A stretch of 64,000 nt of DNA from an uncultured virus (IMG/VR IMGVR_UViG_3300011258_000929) (taxonomy: Duplodnaviria; Heunggongvirae; Uroviricota; Caudoviricetes), in the IMG/VR virus record IMGVR_UViG_3300011258_000929. The stretch is one strand, 5' to 3'. Below are positions 54,666-64,000 of the stretch, one piece after another; within the stretch, counting starts at the first letter, position 1, and each line of letters starts with the position of its first letter. The notes below the pieces were generated by a model. That model was not told the DNA's origin and made no database searches. It was given only the letters and a program-made list of their open reading frames with translations. A program made the translations under genes and the position numbers.

Positions 54666-54915
54666 ATGCCTAAGAATATTTTAACAATACAACGACTAGA
54701 AAAGTTGTTTGCTGATTCTAATGAACCAATGAACCCACATGAAATACGAGACGCATTCAAACAGCGTTGGCCTAAATCTCTACCTTCGATGACGAGCACT
54801 ATCGAATCTATTATCTAGGCATAAGCAGTTTGAAGAAGTAGGTTTTTCAAAAATAGAAGGGCCAATTGGTGCTGATAAAGTAAAGGTATGGCAACTCAAT
54901 GAGCGTATGGTGTAA
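54666..54915 (+). pseudogene. Winged-helix-like gene broken by a 1-nt frameshift near 54792
   Basis: Removing one base joins ...HEIRDAFKQRWPKSLPSM to RALSNLLSRHKQFEEVG...VWQLNERMV. Confidence 0.5.
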
Positions 54916-54975
54916 TGGATAGCATACTGGCCTTCTAAGCCGGTGATACGGGTTCGACTCCTGTTACGCTCGCCA
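54901..54975 (+). tRNA. tRNA-Arg(UCU)
   Basis: GAGCGTA/TACGCTC acceptor stem, CTTCTAA anticodon loop, GGTTCGACTCC T arm, encoded CCA. Confidence 0.92.
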
Positions 54976-54976
54976 A

Positions 54977-55052
54977 GGACTCTTAGCATAGTGGTTAATG
55001 CTCTTGGCTCATAACCAAGCGACCATCGGTTCAAATCCGATAGAGTCCACCA
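54977..55052 (+). tRNA. tRNA with CAU anticodon (elongator Met or Ile2)
   Basis: GGACTCT/AGAGTCC stem, CTCATAA loop, GGTTCAAATCC T arm, CCA; lacks initiator hallmarks. Confidence 0.88.
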
Positions 55053-56281: not shown

Positions 56282-57409
56282 ATGCAAATACCAAGAGAAG
56301 CAATTGAATTAACATATGAAAAAAGTGAACGAAAGTTCAAGCGAGGACTAGGCGAAGGCCGATGGGATAGGAAACTAAAACAAGAGATGGTAAGACTCTC
56401 TAGTGCTGATAACTATGAAGACGCTAAACATGAATGGACTGCTACAGGAGAGATTTGGTGGAACATAAGTCAAGGACAAGCACCCGAATGGGTTTCTAAT
56501 TCTACTAATGGCTACGGTAAGTGTCTATGCGGTCATAACATCGTCTATCACTTTGAGATACATAATGAAGTGACTAATGTAACTGAATGTGTTGGTAGCG
56601 ACCACATCAATTCGTATTTGGTTCTTAATGAAATTAAGAATCGAACAGGTCTTGCTGAAAACGAAATCACTGATGAAATGATTGAAGAGTGGATTAATGT
56701 TAAAATTAAATCCATGAAGTGTGAAAAATGGTGGGATGAACAAGGAGATGATTTCATTGATAAGTTTGAGGACATTAGAGAATTAGACTTAAGAATCAAT
56801 GTAAATGAAAAAGGTACTTATTGGGACAACAATCTATCAATGTATAGATTTAGAACTACTATCCGAAAGAGAAGTAGTGGTGGTAACATGGCATCTATTG
56901 TATGGAGATGGAATCATCCCGACAATCCAAAGAATCAGTTTGAGGTTCATGGCTATCCAAACAAGAAACTTGTAGATGACTTGTATGAGTTTCATGAGAT
57001 GTCAGCCCCGCTAATTGAAAAACTCAAAAATGAAGACGCAATGATGGCTAAAAGACTCCAATTAATTCATGAGTCTAAGTCAAAAATGCTAAGAGTGACT
57101 AATGATGATATTGTTGAATCTATGGCTGAATACTATGGTTTTGACAATTTTATGAAATACAGCAGTGGTTATTTGGGTGAATGGGAAACTAAGTTTTTCA
57201 ACAGCATCAAACAACAACTATCCAAGCATAAGGAATTAAGTAACGCACAGATTGAAACAGTGCGAGACTTGATGACTCCCGCTACGGAAAAACAAATTAA
57301 CTATTTACTTTCGCTAGGCTTTGAAGACGAAACTACATTATCAAAGCGTCAAGCGAGTAATGCCATAGAACGGCAAAAACAAGACGGCTTAAATAGTCGC
57401 AGGACATGA
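56282..57409 (+). CDS. Zn-binding hypothetical protein
   Basis: CLCGH...CVGSDH; C-terminal PATEKQ...ASNAI motif. Confidence 0.5.
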   Translation: MQIPREAIELTYEKSERKFKRGLGEGRWDRKLKQEMVRLSSADNYEDAKHEWTATGEIWWNISQGQAPEWVSNSTNGYGKCLCGHNIVYHFEIHNEVTNVTECVGSDHINSYLVLNEIKNRTGLAENEITDEMIEEWINVKIKSMKCEKWWDEQGDDFIDKFEDIRELDLRINVNEKGTYWDNNLSMYRFRTTIRKRSSGGNMASIVWRWNHPDNPKNQFEVHGYPNKKLVDDLYEFHEMSAPLIEKLKNEDAMMAKRLQLIHESKSKMLRVTNDDIVESMAEYYGFDNFMKYSSGYLGEWETKFFNSIKQQLSKHKELSNAQIETVRDLMTPATEKQINYLLSLGFEDETTLSKRQASNAIERQKQDGLNSRRT

Positions 57410-57432: not shown

Positions 57433-57639
57433 ATGATTAAACTAACAATTTTGAATGAGACAGGACACACAGAACTTGAAATGGCAATTACAGAAGTCAT
57501 TGAGCAAATAGACAGCCACCCGACCCATTGGGTTTTCGTAGATGGTGCTATTGTAAGCCGAGAAAACATAACTGAAATTAATTGGGAGAGCGTTGAGTCG
57601 GTAGACTTGACTCCCGCTATCGTTGGAGGACACTATTAA
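57433..57639 (+). CDS. Ubiquitin-like (ThiS/MoaD/SAMP beta-grasp) protein ending GG-HY
   Basis: 68 aa, VFVDG...VDLTPAIVGG C-terminal signature; GGTGA SD. Confidence 0.8.
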   Translation: MIKLTILNETGHTELEMAITEVIEQIDSHPTHWVFVDGAIVSRENITEINWESVESVDLTPAIVGGHY

Positions 57640-57678
57640 ACATAATAGTGTCTACCAACTTCTCTCAACAGGTGTATT

Positions 57679-57957
57679 ATGCCCCTCTTTCGTAACTTTG
57701 AAGAGTGTAAGAGAATCGTCTCTCTTATGCTTGAAGACTTTACGGAAGAGGGGCGACTAAATATAGAAAACACCATCCTTTATTGTCAGCAACTAGATAG
57801 TGACGCTGATAAAAAATTCGCACTCACTCGTTCCGTAAAAAAACAACTATGGGACATTCCTAAAGCAGTAGATATGGGCTTTGTAGAATATCTAAAAGAA
57901 AGAGTCAATCATCTAAGAATACTCATTGAATATGAAAAGGTGAACAACGATGAATAA
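57679..57957 (+). CDS. Hypothetical protein
   Basis: AGGTG SD. Confidence 0.5.
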   Translation: MPLFRNFEECKRIVSLMLEDFTEEGRLNIENTILYCQQLDSDADKKFALTRSVKKQLWDIPKAVDMGFVEYLKERVNHLRILIEYEKVNNDE

Positions 57958-58105
57958 TCCCGAATATGTAAATAATACTAGAGGTAAGCCAATAGCAACT
58001 CGATGTAGAGTTTGTGGAGGACAATTAGTTAATACAATAGAATTTAAACTAGAAGCACATGAAGAATGTGTAAATAAATACAAATCAAATAAATATATGA
58101 TGTGA
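57950..58105 (+). CDS. 51-aa Zn-finger peptide (not in ORF track)
   Basis: CRVCGG...HEEC. Confidence 0.55.
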   Translation: MNNPEYVNNTRGKPIATRCRVCGGQLVNTIEFKLEAHEECVNKYKSNKYMM

Positions 58106-58110
58106 AAAAC

Positions 58111-59580
58111 ATGAAAAAAATAATAATAAATAGACAAGGACAAGGAAGAACGATAACTCAATTAGACATTCAAATATATCACCCCGAAACGAACAGATAT
58201 TACATTGGATTTTATAGCCTATGCGCCCTAGAAAAGACTAGTATGCAGTTAAGAGGTTGGTCTAAAGAGATTAAAGCAGGTTATCAAGAAAGAAAATACA
58301 CTGAAATATCAAATTATGATTCTTTAGAGGATTTAGAAATAGAACCTACGGTCTACAAAACACACTCTTCTAAAAGTTCTTATAATTGTAACATGAGTTG
58401 GAATACTATAACAGTTACCGACTATAGTTTGGGTACATCTAATCCTATAGTAACAGCCCTATCAAAAAAACTATCTAAGGAAATCTCATATTATTTTAAC
58501 GGAGAATCAAAATATCAAACAGGAAGTATCTATACTACAGGAGAGGATAGAGTATTTACTAAAGAAACAGAACTAATATATTCTTTTTTAGACAATGATG
58601 TTATTTTGAGTTTCCCGTATGCTATAAACGGTAGAAAAATGGGACTCAAAGAAATCTCTAATAAAATATCAAGGATGATAATTGCTAAAAGCAACATTGA
58701 GAAAAGACATTCCTTTGATGAAAGAAGACTTCAAATGAAAAAACAAATAAAGTCTATTATGAAAACTCCCGAAGACATCATGTATTGTTTAGAGAATCGT
58801 GTCCCTTATCATTTCTTTAGCGATGATATAAGAGGAAGAAATCTAGTAGAAGTTCGGCTAAATCTTAAACAGATTAGTTATGATTCTTACGCTCTTGAAA
58901 TCGGAGATGGCGTATGGGGAGAGATTACCGAAAAAGATTTACTTACTTACCTAGGTCATTATTTGCATGGGTATAAGAGAGGTAGTTGGAAGTTCCTATC
59001 TCCTAAAAAACTATATTCTAAAATTATGGGCAAAGAACAATCTGTATCGGAACAGAAAGTAATGGTGGCATTCTTATTACAGAATAGAACCCAAGACCTT
59101 GTAGAAAAAAGAGCAAAACAACTTATTAATGAAATGGCTGTAAAATACAAGGATAGAATACTAGTGATAAAAGGCGACGACCACATAGAAGACTCATATT
59201 CTAGGAAATTACCAACAAAAATACTAGTCAAGGGAGAAATGACAGACTGGCTTTTGGTTGAAAAACTTCGTTCTTATTCTGGTAGCGACCCCCAAAGAGT
59301 CCACACACATTGTTTGCTTACGGTGAATAATGAAGAAGAAGGCTACTACGCTTATTGGAGTGGGGTAATATGTATCAACACAGGTGGAAAAAACCCTTCA
59401 TTGGGCGACCAATTCGCAACTAGAATTTTGTCTCTAATGAATGATAGAACTGCGTCTGCTAGAGTCAATACTATTGGCAACTACATGGTAGAAGAAAACA
59501 ACTCTAGATTAAGAGTTCCTTTGAAAGAAGAATATACAAATAATGGTGATAAATATGACGAAAAAATGCTTAGAATGTAA
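58111..59580 (+). CDS. Hypothetical protein with C-terminal GVICIN motif
   Basis: Long ORF between the Ubl and TFIIB/E1 genes. Confidence 0.5.
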   Translation: MKKIIINRQGQGRTITQLDIQIYHPETNRYYIGFYSLCALEKTSMQLRGWSKEIKAGYQERKYTEISNYDSLEDLEIEPTVYKTHSSKSSYNCNMSWNTITVTDYSLGTSNPIVTALSKKLSKEISYYFNGESKYQTGSIYTTGEDRVFTKETELIYSFLDNDVILSFPYAINGRKMGLKEISNKISRMIIAKSNIEKRHSFDERRLQMKKQIKSIMKTPEDIMYCLENRVPYHFFSDDIRGRNLVEVRLNLKQISYDSYALEIGDGVWGEITEKDLLTYLGHYLHGYKRGSWKFLSPKKLYSKIMGKEQSVSEQKVMVAFLLQNRTQDLVEKRAKQLINEMAVKYKDRILVIKGDDHIEDSYSRKLPTKILVKGEMTDWLLVEKLRSYSGSDPQRVHTHCLLTVNNEEEGYYAYWSGVICINTGGKNPSLGDQFATRILSLMNDRTASARVNTIGNYMVEENNSRLRVPLKEEYTNNGDKYDEKMLRM

Positions 59581-60382
59581 ATCGAATAGTTTCAGTATAG
59601 ATGAAAGGATGGGAGAATTAGTATGTGACGATTGCGGTTTGGTTCTAATTACCGAACCCTTTGAACAGACTTCCTATTCCTATAATTCTAATGGCGAGAT
59701 GATTAGAGAACCTTGGAGAACCCCCCACACTACAGTAAATATGAGGTCTTGGGGAAAGACAGACAGGGCAATACATACAGGCATTGCAATGTGTAAAATA
59801 TTACTATCGTCGTTGTCGGAGTCTAAAGTATTGCGAGAGAGAATTGATTCTTTGTATAGGACTCTTTACCACAAGCATGTATTCACCACTTCTACATTAG
59901 AGGACAGGTCGGCGGCATTAGTTTATTTTCTTTTGAGAGAACAAAACTTACCATATACTTTGAAGGAAGTATGTAGTGAATATGATTGCGCCGAGAAAAG
60001 AGTTTTCAAACTCTCAAAGAAAATAGCCAAAAGTCAAGGTAAAACTGCAATTTTTCTAATAAACGATAGTAGACCGTTTGCTGAAAAATATGCACATAAA
60101 CTTGGAGATTCACAGTTCGTATCTAAGGTTGGTAGGCTAGCATATCACTATGATGAATTAGTTACTAAAACCGGAGACAATTTGAGGCCGTCATCATCAG
60201 TGGCTTTTTGCTACATAGTATCTATTGCGGAGAACATGTCAATGAGTCAAAAGACCATATCCGAACAAACGGGTATATCTACAAAAACAATTCAAATGGA
60301 AACAAAAAGACTACTAAAAATAAAAAATACAAATAAAAAAGAAATAGAAGGAAAGGGAATAGAATGGATAGAAACATATTAA
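59555..60382 (+). CDS. tfb: Transcription factor IIB (TFB) homologue
   Basis: CLEC...DERMGELVCDDCGLV Zn ribbon plus two cyclin-like repeats. Confidence 0.85.
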   Translation: MTKKCLECKSNSFSIDERMGELVCDDCGLVLITEPFEQTSYSYNSNGEMIREPWRTPHTTVNMRSWGKTDRAIHTGIAMCKILLSSLSESKVLRERIDSLYRTLYHKHVFTTSTLEDRSAALVYFLLREQNLPYTLKEVCSEYDCAEKRVFKLSKKIAKSQGKTAIFLINDSRPFAEKYAHKLGDSQFVSKVGRLAYHYDELVTKTGDNLRPSSSVAFCYIVSIAENMSMSQKTISEQTGISTKTIQMETKRLLKIKNTNKKEIEGKGIEWIETY

Positions 60383-60942
60383 TTATAGGAGCAGGAGGAA
60401 TCGGAAGTCATTTGATAAGGATTCTTGAAAGTGTAACAGGTGACGGAACAAAAGGACAATTGTATAGTATCAATGTTTCCGACCCCGATACAGTAGAAGA
60501 AAAGAATTTGACATATCAAGACTTTACGAAAGAAGACATAGGAAAGACCAAGGTTTCCTGTATGAAGAAGCACAGTCAAATAAATGGTGCAAATCCATAT
60601 CCAATATTGACGGAAACGCAATTGAAAGGATATGATTTAGTAGTTTGTTGTGTTGATAATTTAGATGCTAGAAGGCTGTTGTACCGTTCACAGGTAAAGT
60701 GGCTAGACTTACGCTCTCAAGGGCGTAATGCGGCCTATATTTCATACAAGGCTGACCCATCAATGTATGACACTATGCTAGCAGGGCCGGATGGTTCTTT
60801 TAGTTGTCAAGGTGATTCATGGGATGGTTCTTCTAAAGGACTACATTTCATGCACATTGCTATTGCAGGAATGGCGGCGGAATGGATTCAGCGTTGGTTT
60901 AATGGTGAATCAGTAAATGACTTTGCGGTGGTGAATGTATGA
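60364..60942 (+). CDS. ThiF/E1-like adenylyltransferase
   Basis: IIGAGGIGS, DPDTVEEKNL, GKTKV, CVDNLDARR. Confidence 0.9.
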   Translation: MDRNILIIGAGGIGSHLIRILESVTGDGTKGQLYSINVSDPDTVEEKNLTYQDFTKEDIGKTKVSCMKKHSQINGANPYPILTETQLKGYDLVVCCVDNLDARRLLYRSQVKWLDLRSQGRNAAYISYKADPSMYDTMLAGPDGSFSCQGDSWDGSSKGLHFMHIAIAGMAAEWIQRWFNGESVNDFAVVNV

Positions 60943-61066
60943 AAACAATTGAAATAATTAAAAAGTGGGAGGATGCCTTCGATACTGCGTTTTTAGGAGA
61001 TGCAGATAACTTTGAACATATAGAAATATTGATAGAGGCTTTAGAAAAACTACGGAGTGAAGAAGA

Positions 61067-61339
61067 ATGAAGTGCGATGTTTGTCATGGTAAAATAGATG
61101 AGCATAGTCACAACGGTAAAGTTTACTGGACTGAGGGACATAATGCCGAACCTTTAGTTAGTGGTCGTTGTTGTGACGCTTGTAATAGTTTAGTTATGGG
61201 ATTTAGAATGTTTGGCAACAAGATTCATAGAAGTGAAGACTTCGACTCTCCAAGTGCTAAACTTCAAGTCGAAAGACAAAGAGATGAACTACTCAAGTTT
61301 GCAGTTATGCTAAGGCTATCAAGAGATGAAGAAGAATGA
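61067..61339 (+). CDS. Zn-finger protein
   Basis: CDVC...GHNAEP...GRCCDACN. Confidence 0.55.
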   Translation: MKCDVCHGKIDEHSHNGKVYWTEGHNAEPLVSGRCCDACNSLVMGFRMFGNKIHRSEDFDSPSAKLQVERQRDELLKFAVMLRLSRDEEE

Positions 61340-61929
61340 ATATATTTGCACTATCAACAGACCCTATAGAATCAGCACAGCAAATGCTAGACAAACATGT
61401 AGTTAAAATGCCAACGGAAAGTTGTCAAATGCTACATACTAATTCCCTTTACTTTTTGTTTTTGGAAAGTCATGGTAGAGAACCTTCATTGAAAGAGTTA
61501 AAAGAGTTTCATAAAGAGTCGCACTTTAACTACTTGATGAAACCCGCTATGCTTAATCATCCTAGTACTATTTGGGCTAGGCAAACTAAAGCAAATTACA
61601 TGTGGCTTTACAATCACGCTATGGCTCTTTGCAAAGAATATACATTTAGATACGGTAAAGTTCATGGAACAGAAAAAAGAGTACAGGATAGTTTTACTTT
61701 TTCTTATGAAGAAGGCGACTTGACTCCTGTATCTATTGCTATGGCTGACATCTACAGACTGCCTAAAGAAAAACACAGTTGGGATTTTGTAATAAAGTCC
61801 TATCGCCACTACTATTTACAAGGTAAGTGGGATTTTGCTTTTTGGAGTAAAAGAAAAGAACCGGAATGGTGGCCCGAAAACCACCGACACAACATGATAA
61901 AAAACAGAAAACCCTTTGGAGGTAATTAA
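61336..61929 (+). CDS. Pyrimidine-dimer DNA glycosylase-like protein
   Basis: MNIF...DKHVVKM..E..QML...NHPSTIW. Confidence 0.75.
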   Translation: MNIFALSTDPIESAQQMLDKHVVKMPTESCQMLHTNSLYFLFLESHGREPSLKELKEFHKESHFNYLMKPAMLNHPSTIWARQTKANYMWLYNHAMALCKEYTFRYGKVHGTEKRVQDSFTFSYEEGDLTPVSIAMADIYRLPKEKHSWDFVIKSYRHYYLQGKWDFAFWSKRKEPEWWPENHRHNMIKNRKPFGGN

Positions 61930-61930
61930 A

Positions 61931-62149
61931 ATGAAATATACAGAAGAAAATTTAGGAAATAAAATAAATTATGATAATGAAAATGGTAGCCACTATGATG
62001 AAAGAATTGTAGAGGTTTACTGCGGAATATGTAGTGCTAGGTTTATTGGCCCTATTAGACAAGCAGGTGGATTCATTGCAGGACATGAAGCGTTTCATGC
62101 TTGGGAATTTAAAATTGCTATGAATGCAGAAGACGGAATGGTGGCTTAA
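61931..62149 (+). CDS. Small Zn-binding protein
   Basis: CGIC...HEAFH. Confidence 0.45.
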   Translation: MKYTEENLGNKINYDNENGSHYDERIVEVYCGICSARFIGPIRQAGGFIAGHEAFHAWEFKIAMNAEDGMVA

Positions 62150-62704
62150 ATGGGTAGAAGTGGAGAATGGTTTTCTAGAACAGAAGAAGAAAGTATTCGT
62201 AGAGCCGAAGCCCATTGGGAATATCAAGAACAAATCGCTACTGCTAGGAACGACATTATTCCTTTCTTGCAGGGTGTTTGGACTAATCTACATCAAGAAT
62301 GGGGTGACGATGCAATACATACTAAAGCAATACAAGAAGCACTATGGAAGGCTTCTACTGAAATGCTTCCTAATTTAGAAGTACAGATAGTAATAGATGC
62401 TAATAATAGAGCGCATATCGCATCCGGTTCTTCCGGCTTTGTAAGTTTCTTGAAACAACCTAAAGGATTGACATTGCCTGTTCGATGTTGGTATCATACT
62501 CATCCTTTTGGTTCGGCTTATTTTAGTGGTACTGATTGGGGTACAGTAATACCTTGGACTCCTAGAATGGAGTGTGCCTATGTTGTTGGCGGTGAAGACC
62601 ATTATGGATATTGGTCTAATGTCCGACCTAATGAATTAGAGATTAAGAAAAAGGATGGTTCTTGGAGTATTCAATACTATGCTAAAGTAGGTGAAGAAGA
62701 ATGA
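62150..62704 (+). CDS. JAB/MPN+ (JAMM) metallopeptidase
   Basis: E...WYHTHPFGSAYFSGTD = E-xn-HxH-x7-S-x2-D. Confidence 0.88.
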   Translation: MGRSGEWFSRTEEESIRRAEAHWEYQEQIATARNDIIPFLQGVWTNLHQEWGDDAIHTKAIQEALWKASTEMLPNLEVQIVIDANNRAHIASGSSGFVSFLKQPKGLTLPVRCWYHTHPFGSAYFSGTDWGTVIPWTPRMECAYVVGGEDHYGYWSNVRPNELEIKKKDGSWSIQYYAKVGEEE

Positions 62705-63227
62705 ATGATGCAACTAAAGCAATACAAAAACTAAGAGAGAAACAAGAACAAATGATGGCAGAAGCACAAAGAATGACTTTGCGCGCTGACAAACTAAAGA
62801 AGGTAGCGGACTTCCAAACGAACTTCCGTGACCGCCGATGGGTTGTTGATGCGCTTGACATAGATGGATTGATTGCTCGCAGTATGGTGCTAAGAGATAC
62901 CGAAAGCGGTATTCTTGTTCGCGCATCTTTTAACATTGACCTTGAGATAATCGCTGACGGCTTTGAACATACTGTCAAGGGTTTCATAGGAGGCGAAGAA
63001 GAATGATTGACACAGACAAATACGAAGGACATGATAATTGGGAAGGCACTAAAGTCAATATGGCTAACGAGGCAAATAAATTACTCATCGCAGACGCACC
63101 ACTTCTCCTTGAAGAAGTCAAGCGGTTGCGTTCAATTGCAGATGATTTGTATGCTTACATTGTAAGTGATGCAGGTATTTCACTAAAGATAATTGAAGAA
63201 CAGATGGATTGGAGAGAGGAAGAATGA
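62701..63227 (+). CDS. Two small hypothetical genes
   Basis: 62701-63006 and 63003-63227, ATGA-coupled. Confidence 0.5.
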
Positions 63228-63265
63228 TTGACACTTTAAATACTGTTAAAGACGGTGGTAAAAAT

Positions 63266-63484
63266 ATGAAAGCGGTTGGAGAATGGGTAGTTATTAAGAA
63301 AGACAAGACAACAAGTGCCTCCGGCATTATCTCGATTGGAGATAACATTGGAGTAGTGCATGATTGTTCTATTGATAAAACCTTGATAGGAAAGAAGGTA
63401 GTGTTCAATGCCGAAGACAAACACTTTACTTATGAAGAATATACCTTTGTAGATTATTCTAAAGTCTATGGGTTGGTTCTATGA
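63266..63484 (+). CDS. groES: Co-chaperonin GroES-like
   Basis: MKAVGEWVVIK...TSASGII mobile loop; adjacent to groEL. Confidence 0.7.
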   Translation: MKAVGEWVVIKKDKTTSASGIISIGDNIGVVHDCSIDKTLIGKKVVFNAEDKHFTYEEYTFVDYSKVYGLVL

Positions 63485-64000
63485 TTCTACATGGAGAAGA
63501 AGCACGAAAGAAAATCCTTGAGGGTATTAATCTAGTGGCAAATACAGTCAAGCCCACTTTAGGGCCACAGGCTAGAACAGCCATACTTCAAGGAAATCCT
63601 CCTGTAGTTATTAATGACGGAGTTACTATCTCTAAATATGTATCTAGCAAAGACCCTTATGTTCAAATGGGTGTTCAACTTGTTCAAAATCTAGCGAGCA
63701 AAGCACAGTCTAAAGCAGGAGACGGCACTACTACCGCATGTGTATTAGCACAGGCTCTTTGTAACAACATGTCCGAAGAAGAACTAAAGAACATAACATC
63801 TACTAGACAGAAACTACAAGAAGACAGAGACACTATCCTAAGAAACTTAGACAAGTATTCTAAACCCGTTAAGGATGAAGACATTGGTAAAATTGCCACG
63901 ATTGCATCAAATAACGATGAAGAACTAGGTTTGATTATTTCGGAAGTATTCAAAGAAGTGGGTAGAGATGGAGTAGTAAGCGTAGAAGAAGGACACGGCT
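63481..64000 (+). CDS. groEL: Group I chaperonin GroEL, truncated by window edge (not in ORF track)
   Basis: MILHGEEARKKILEG...TLGP...NDGVTI...AGDGTTTA...IATIASNND...VGRDGVVSVEEG. Confidence 0.92.
   Translation, partial: MILHGEEARKKILEGINLVANTVKPTLGPQARTAILQGNPPVVINDGVTISKYVSSKDPYVQMGVQLVQNLASKAQSKAGDGTTTACVLAQALCNNMSEEELKNITSTRQKLQEDRDTILRNLDKYSKPVKDEDIGKIATIASNNDEELGLIISEVFKEVGRDGVVSVEEGHG

Follow-up and report, generated by a model that had tools for sequence, protein, structure and literature searches.

What business has a tailed virus with the parts of a protein-tagging machine? The question is raised by a stretch of 64,000 nucleotides from an uncultured member of the Caudoviricetes (IMG/VR record IMGVR_UViG_3300011258_000929), which we call the window. 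On its plus strand, within 5.3 kb, lie three genes: one for a small ubiquitin-like protein (Ubl; 68 aa, 57433–57639), one for a compact E1-like adenylase of the ThiF type (192 aa, 60364–60942) and one for a JAMM/MPN+ metalloprotease (JAB; 184 aa, 62150–62704). A first-pass annotation, made from the letters of the DNA, had placed the three genes on one strand here and supposed that the virus matures and conjugates a modifier of its own. The open reading frames (ORFs) are indeed where it put them. Our answer, drawn from sequence comparison and from analogy with systems already known, is that there is about an even chance that the three proteins form a system that activates, conjugates and removes a Ubl without the help of an E2, tagging proteins during infection. 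If this is true, a complete Ubl/E1/JAMM set that is virus-encoded and conserved across a viral group would give prokaryotic viruses a novel means of rewiring proteins of the host or of their own. The window itself matches the magroviruses, in gene content and in its relatives, and so appears to belong to a tailed archaeal virus of that type. Magroviruses rank with the most abundant viruses of archaea in surface oceans; they infect hosts that are uncultured.

Is the small protein a modifier at all? The strongest evidence that it is comes from its C-terminus. Relatives of each of the three proteins were collected as clusters and the best 120 listed, in the case of the Ubl the best 120 of 537. 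The window's Ubl ends AIVGG-HY, and A[IV]VGG followed by 0 to 4 residues is the C-terminus in 117 of those 120 relatives. Two of the other three have IIGG or SIVGG and the last has GD replacing GG, leaving Gly-Gly with 0 to 4 trailing residues in 119 of 120. What follows the glycines is another matter: among the 117 clusters the tail is two residues long in 90, missing in 18, one residue in eight and four in one, and it comes in 30 distinct states. A sequence that is near-invariant up to Gly-Gly and then carries a tail that varies freely, or is absent, has the pattern of a processed, C-terminally activated modifier. The beginning of the protein can also be placed. An alternative upstream ATG at 57406 is unconserved, while the orthologues begin MI(K/T)L and AAGGTGAT stands just upstream of the ATG at 57433, which is therefore the better start.

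By sequence the Ubl is an orphan. Neither the protein nor its profile matched anything in Pfam, NCBIfam or the PDB sequences, and it is thus not a recognisable sequence member of the ThiS, MoaD or ubiquitin family models. Its structure is more forthcoming. An AF2 model built from 40 sequences (pLDDT 86.8) has the order strand–strand–helix–strand–strand–helix–strand, and the top Foldseek matches listed are all ubiquitin, NEDD8, SUMO, ISG15 or the archaeal protein Mth1743, with E values of about 1e-2 and probabilities of 0.87–0.99. The modelled protein has a beta-grasp fold. The annotation had called it a beta-grasp protein ending IVGG-HY, and both halves of that description stand, the ending from the ORF itself and the fold from the model and its Foldseek matches.

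What might activate such a protein? The E1-like gene product matches Pfam ThiF (PF00899) with an E value of 2.6e-15 and 56.7 bits against a cut-off of 28.1, and it carries the motifs GAGGIGS, KNLTYQ, K63, CVDN (containing D98) and SFSCQG (containing C148). Invariant or nearly so across its family are G9–S15 (GxGGIGS), K47, N48, Y51, Q52, K63, D98, N99, R103, W113–R117, C148, Q149, G150 and a helix with the sequence EWIQRWFN. The Rossmann GxGGxG is found in 117 of the 120 listed relatives. The magnesium-binding aspartate motif is present, with D98, N99 and R103 invariant and CxDN in 120 of 120, and the cysteine of CQG is likewise kept in all 120. Neither a rhodanese domain nor a CxxC zinc motif is seen in the sequence. 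The family profile matches MccB, the ThiF-type structure 9egc, UBA5, UBA3, Uba4, Cap2, ThiF and MoeB at E values from 1e-9 to 3e-6, each match spanning the N-terminal 100 or so residues only; aligned with hhalign to a canonical 251-aa ThiF, residues 2–101 pair with a probability of 97%. No E1 structure was found in the Atlas. The first-pass label of a ThiF/E1 adenylase with a candidate catalytic cysteine in GSFSCQ accordingly survives. C148, an invariant residue, is the putative thioester cysteine.

The protease is the third part. Its ORF contains HTHPFGSAYFSGTD, the JAMM signature HxHx7SxxD. All 120 listed relatives share this signature, and E77, H116, H118, S126 and D129 do not vary among 44 sequences. 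Against the Pfam Prok-JAB model (PF14464) the protein falls below the cut-off (19.8 versus 25 bits, E 7e-4), while its family profile finds AMSH-LP (1.3e-3), STAMBP, Sst2 and RPN11 among PDB entries, with matches running across the motif. An AF2 model (pLDDT 89.2) shows two long N-terminal helices (residues 3–72) followed by a JAB core (77–176), and Foldseek ranks a Caldiarchaeum Rpn11 homologue, AMSH-LP, PfJAMM1, AfJAMM and BilC as its matches. The model, then, has the JAB/MPN fold, and the intact HxH-S-D motif that the annotation had noted goes with invariant residues and with a fold that matches JAMM enzymes. A tblastn search for this JAB in a phage collection gave no match. In one related viral record (G012:C1:68851-69351) the JAB match is crossed by two in-frame TAG codons, which could mean that the gene is broken, that the sequence is in error or that the stop is recoded.

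Do the three parts belong together? In the viruses they are seldom seen apart. All 26 E1 loci have a JAB, and all 19 with at least 4 kb of sequence upstream have the Ubl, the other seven being cut off. From the other end, of the viral Ubl loci that extend at least 8 kb downstream, 77 of 77 have the E1 and 76 of the 77 have the JAB, the sequence simply running out in the single miss; the two sets of loci share some contigs. Five records selected by their capsid gene behave in an all-or-none fashion, three having all three genes and two (72–77% complete) having none. Co-occurrence across magroviruses had been proposed as a check on the annotation, and the genes are co-inherited. There is a catch. 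The whole block of g375, Ubl, g92, g51, g492, TFB, E1, JAB and chaperonin is syntenic among magroviruses, and this synteny confounds the co-occurrence, making co-inheritance within magroviruses weak evidence when taken alone. Nor are the three genes contiguous in the window: g92, g51, g492 and the TFB gene separate the Ubl from the E1, while the E1 and the JAB have g90, a Pyr_excise-like gene and g77 between them. In nearer magrovirus relatives (for example, locus L013) the ORFs of the E1 and the JAB lie end to end or overlap, and the window differs from these in the three genes inserted between them.

Better evidence comes from further afield. The E1 profile finds a sister family in cellular genome bins, at 28–36% identity. 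On four short contigs labelled Poseidoniales or Verrucomicrobia, a Ubl of 72–76 aa, ending VRIVPGLVGG plus two residues, stands directly upstream of a 419–443-aa fusion of E1 and JAB. Two other contigs have the order Ubl, 272-aa unknown protein, E1, JAB, with overlapping ends. The viral JAB profile recovers the sister JABs in five of five genomes (E 1e-16 to 3e-20, ORFs of 418–491 aa), and the viral Ubl profile recovers the sister Ubls in the same proportion (5/5, E 6.5e-11 to 8e-9). An E1–JAB fusion with a Ubl immediately upstream, at this degree of divergence, points to the three parts working together, and we regard the sister system as good evidence, and the best there is, for a functional link between them. 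Among the neighbours of the sister system Pfam recognised no family besides ThiF, and a search with the magrovirus terminase was empty in all five genomes.

One of these sets has a setting worth describing. A Poseidoniales single-cell contig (L116 1-3851 (-); L124, G001:C6) carries ordinary metabolic genes and ends in an island that holds a NERD nuclease, helix–turn–helix regulators, a 1283-aa protein and the sister Ubl/E1/JAB set. The 1283-aa protein contains a phage-type single-subunit RNA polymerase domain (PF00940, 1e-28).

Might the three viral genes nonetheless be unrelated neighbours? The E1-like enzyme would then adenylate some other substrate, perhaps a peptide in the manner of MccB or a nucleoside in that of TcdA, and the Gly-Gly end of the small protein would be incidental. 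MccB is indeed the best PDB profile match of the E1 (1.4e-9), and other genes do separate the three in the window. The sister family, with its E1–JAB fusion and its Ubl directly upstream, speaks against it, as do the invariant Gly-Gly end and the all-or-none phyletic pattern. The E1 also lacks the N-terminal peptide-clamp domain of MccB-type enzymes because it starts at the Rossmann motif. We find this explanation very improbable.

If the parts work together, what do they do? Their identity, conservation and genomic coupling are read from the genomes; every chemical step we infer. For the conjugation reading the steps would run as follows. The Ubl would be made with HY after its Gly-Gly and the JAMM protease would trim these two residues. 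The E1 would bind ATP-Mg and adenylate the exposed C-terminal glycine, as its homology to ThiF and its invariant active-site residues suggest, and the Ubl might be handed to Cys148 as a thioester. It would then be joined to amino groups on proteins of the virus or the host, with no recognisable E2 taking part, much as UbaA acts with the SAMPs in Haloferax. The JAMM enzyme would reverse the linkage too. Part of the case for this last step lies in the loci whose Ubl ends at a bare Gly-Gly: six of six still carry an intact JAB, from which it follows that trimming the tail cannot be the sole job of the protease. Removing the Ubl from something is probably the simplest additional role.

The same parts could carry sulphur instead. 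The E1 would adenylate the Ubl, a host sulphurtransferase would make the thiocarboxylate and the sulphur would go to a small molecule, a tRNA or a modified nucleotide, the JAB only maturing the carrier or releasing an adduct. A JAMM protease with a short tail after Gly-Gly is also found in the sulphur carriers QbsE/QbsD and CysO/Mec, and the host could supply the missing sulphurtransferase; both points weigh against conjugation. They have company. Quite apart from the block synteny described above, no E2 or E3 was recognised, UQ_con and Prok-E2 being absent from Pfam scans of the 89 window ORFs (16 + 31 + 42). The Ubl, which has 12 acidic residues and R43 as its last basic one, has one lysine, and since that is unconserved the family has no conserved lysine. 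In the E1, Tyr51 stands where NxxRQ has its canonical arginine, K47 and N48 being invariant instead, and KNxxYQ is the form in 119 of the 120 listed relatives; in E1 and ThiF enzymes that arginine contacts the ATP phosphates. Finally, the C-terminal 90 residues of the E1 do not align to canonical ThiF, which makes Cys148, lying beyond the aligned region that ends near residue 101, only a candidate catalytic residue.

On the other side of the balance stands the lack of sulphur chemistry in and around the kit. The E1 has no rhodanese domain of its own, and rhodanese was found in none of five near-complete relatives (0/5), with the control positive in 13 of 14 genomes. Among the 89 window ORFs the Pfam scans detected no E2, rhodanese, ThiG/MoaE, thiamine, Moco or tRNA-thiolation family, bearing out the annotation's remark that genes for thiamine, Moco and tRNA thiolation are missing here; nor did they find an NcsA/TtuA, cysteine synthase or desulphurase family. 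The curated ThiF, MoeB and UbaA models all score the viral E1 far below their cut-offs. The known carriers QbsE/QbsD/QbsC and CysO/Mec/MoeZ have E1s with rhodanese and lie beside sulphur-acceptor enzymes, neither of which was found for the viral kit. In the portion of Iyer et al. (2006; PMC1779556) that bears on this, JAB is absent from the thiamine and MoCo pathways and their classical operons, and JAB-linked E1s without rhodanese are predicted to act like true E1s, forming a thioester and transferring to lysine. As to the E2, none of UQ_con, Prok-E2_A or Prok-E2_B was found in the five near-complete relatives, where the controls were silent too, and this is not evidence of absence. The SAMP/UbaA system, for its part, needs no E2. 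On balance we take sulphur carriage to be unlikely, though by no means negligible. What stands of the annotation's central claim is the conserved, linked set and a Gly-Gly tail that fits JAMM maturation; a protein conjugate, rather than a thiocarboxylate, is the proposed product. Its further ideas, of tagging for the proteasome, of countering defence and of TFB as a target, are speculative.

A third possibility shifts the target. Instead of forming a closed viral pathway, the viral Ubl, the JAB or both might act mainly on host machinery, whether SAMP-type or a Ubl-based defence, serving as a decoy modifier or removing conjugated modifiers. Related Ubl/E1/JAB sets do occur on Poseidoniales-labelled contigs, one of them in the island at the end of a host-like chromosome contig, beside the NERD nuclease, and the JAB persists at loci that have no tail to trim. 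PADLOC models for E1–E2 defence proteins match the E1, weakly (best 9e-7), and the E1 is the only part of the kit that they match; the JAB and the Ubl are matched by no defence-system model. All three parts are strongly conserved in the virus, moreover, and a decoy would need no E1 of its own. We judge hijacking or counter-defence to be distinctly unlikely.

How, then, does the proposed conjugation kit compare with systems already described? It is most like the SAMP/UbaA/JAMM1 system of Haloferax (the PfJAMM1–SAMP2 structure is 5lda) together with the Ubl/E1/JAB operons of bacteria, and it differs from each. Scored against UbaA (NF047750), the viral E1 reaches 28.3 bits where the cut-off is 450; it has 192 aa, lacks the arginine of NxxRQ and lacks CxxC. 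The viral Ubl has no detectable sequence similarity to SAMP, and the viral set is encoded by a virus. As portrayed in PMC1779556, the bacterial operons (classes 6a–6e), a group that includes BilABCD and CBASS Cap2/Cap3, have an E1 fused or adjacent to a JAB, and they carry a small Ubl with a C-terminal glycine and sit on mobile elements; the sister family likewise has E1 fused to JAB. Bil structures (8tyx and 8tyz, of BilC and the bacterial Ubl) are among the fold matches of the viral proteins. The bacterial operons mostly include an E2-like domain, and none was detected in the viral kit, some of the E2 controls being silent. Of the curated models, PRTRC_ThiF (TIGR03736) does best on the viral E1 and on most of 27 relatives, yet it scores 52.2 bits on the former and 27–73 bits on the latter against a cut-off of 144.75, aligning the N-terminal half only. 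PRTRC models found no match among 13 neighbours of the viral genes. The annotation had invoked PRTRC-type and Bil operons as parallels; as a statement of membership that comparison fails, given a PRTRC_ThiF score so far short of the threshold and no E2 found. By the tests run, the viral kit lies outside the UbaA, PRTRC and Bil families.

The kit appears new in form because it is virus-encoded, has a compact SCQ E1 without the arginine and no recognisable E2, and has its genes spread through a replication and transcription module. Searches of the literature turned up no description of this Ubl/E1/JAB set, and the text and supplements of the magrovirus papers examined, one PMC11706807 supplement file excepted, contain no mention of ThiF, JAB or ubiquitin.

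The E1 has a wider family. An exhaustive profile search returned 570 representative clusters at E <= 1e-10, and among the top 150 are 113 full-length proteins with a median length of 197 aa, of which 108 have the CQ motif and none (0/113) has NxxRQ. None of 27 members tested reached an NCBIfam cut-off. On these grounds of cluster number, retained CQ, missing NxxRQ and unreached cut-offs, the viral E1 is placed by its sequence in a large, uncurated clade of compact enzymes (about 190–200 aa) with an SCQ motif and without the NxxRQ arginine. The viral set marks this clade of E1-like enzymes, and an E1 as small as this (around 190 aa) would serve the study of what Ubl activation minimally requires. 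The clade is also found on Poseidoniales-labelled contigs, in Methanoperedens and in crAss-like gut phages, where it has a JAB neighbour. An ‘E1’ match in a Moraxella prophage was set aside as an ordinary MoeB/ThiF with CxxC motifs.

The members in crAss-like phages and in Methanoperedens deserve a word of their own. In the crAss-like phages DAC15 and bajarodcaudo virus 1, a gene with HxHx7SxxD lies directly upstream of an E1-like gene (L027 3554-5663; L029 3598-5654), the annotations of the pair reading hypothetical, ‘thiamine biosynthesis protein’ or ‘E1 enzyme family protein’. No Ubl turned up near this JAB–E1 pair; DAC15_83 (98 aa, ending IIGGYED) was considered and rejected, its orthologue having no Gly-Gly. 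On Methanoperedens and Methanosarcinales contigs (L117, L118 and L122, around 8000), a compact E1 of 195 aa with 36% identity follows an unknown protein of 712–741 aa and precedes one of 166 aa, which ends KGKGG in L117. No JAMM motif was found on the three contigs. L117 also has Ku and DNA-ligase genes upstream of the E1.

Which proteins might be tagged? The neighbourhood offers hints, mostly about transcription. A gene for a TFB/TFIIB-like protein (59543–60382, plus strand; Pfam TFIIB zinc ribbon 7.8e-8, above cut-off; NCBIfam TFIIB 9.8e-13, below cut-off) shares 19 nt with the start of the E1 gene and lies upstream of the E1 in all related loci. With the whole block syntenic, this adjacency says little. 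TFB is a conserved neighbour, and its membership of the system, or its role as a target, is speculation. In Haloferax the sampylation of TBP2 is known (PMC4895103). The sister system has a 333-aa zinc-ribbon protein after the JAB, but as a TFB it did not hold up: hhalign against the viral TFB gave a probability of 27% over 27 ribbon columns only, and the PDB profile match to the TFIIB ribbon had an E value of 0.15. The transcription links of the kit, namely TFB, the zinc-ribbon protein and the RNA polymerase neighbour, are suggestive only.

Between the Ubl and TFB genes lies g492 (58102–59580, plus strand), whose 492-aa product belongs to no recognised family; Pfam, the PDB and the Atlas gave no match. 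Its orthologues are present in related loci and share an invariant Cys424 within WxGxIC[IV][DN], the invariant residues including G378, D382, W383, Q398, C424, D436, Q437, R441, N447 and D448. It is a candidate partner of the Ubl system, and a candidate only. A UBC-like ‘H.H...G.IC’ motif that the eye picks out in g492 found support from no tool and was dropped.

It is tempting to join all of this into one scheme. Magroviruses would run a minimal, E2-independent tagging of the basal transcription machinery, be it viral TFB or host TBP/TFB, that switches the cell to viral transcription; g492, with its invariant cysteine, would be a new carrier or ligase; and the compact SCQ E1 clade of 570 clusters would point to a Ubl pathway, widespread and so far undescribed, among the viruses of archaea and bacteria, the crAss-like JAB–E1 pair included. 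We give the scheme as a whole only a small chance of being right.

Three genes lie between E1 and JAB in the window. The first, g90 (61067–61339), is a 90-aa ORF missing from several related loci, and a contig from run X20 joins 60943 to 61324 via 189 other letters, a natural variant without it. The second encodes a 197-aa Pyr_excise-like protein (61336–61929; pyrimidine-dimer glycosylase Pfam match 5.8e-7, phrog_624 1e-48) and is placed elsewhere in most relatives. The third, g77 (61916–62149, plus strand), encodes a 77-aa protein bearing Cys and His residues and abuts the JAB gene. It is always beside the JAB in nearer relatives, upstream or downstream, and several kilobases off in others, and no Pfam family scored above cut-off. 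Short contigs from two runs labelled metatranscriptomic cover the Ubl, the 3' half of the E1, the Pyr_excise-like gene, g77 and the JAB at 90–99% identity. They are probably DNA, and unusable as evidence of expression.

The rest of the window is that of a tailed virus. From position 1 to about 45 kb, the minus strand is a morphogenesis module with genes for a portal, a prohead protease, an SU10-type capsid protein, large-terminase domains, a tail tube protein and an ATP-dependent DNA ligase. The plus-strand module, from about 51.9 kb, has a UvrD-type helicase, two tRNAs, the TFIIB-like gene and a GroEL-type chaperonin gene (63481–63999). Close relatives are marine viral contigs of 84–97 kb. 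In the part of PMC5434244 that concerns them, magroviruses are viruses of Marine Group II archaea, GroEL is present in some of their groups and no co-chaperonin is to be expected. A 91-aa ORF (63209–63484), which overlaps the start of the chaperonin gene, is retained together with it at most related loci and has no Pfam match; its size and position suggest a co-chaperonin. The two tRNA genes, tRNA-Arg(TCT) and tRNA-Met(CAT), lie side by side at 54901–55052, at the start of the plus-strand module.

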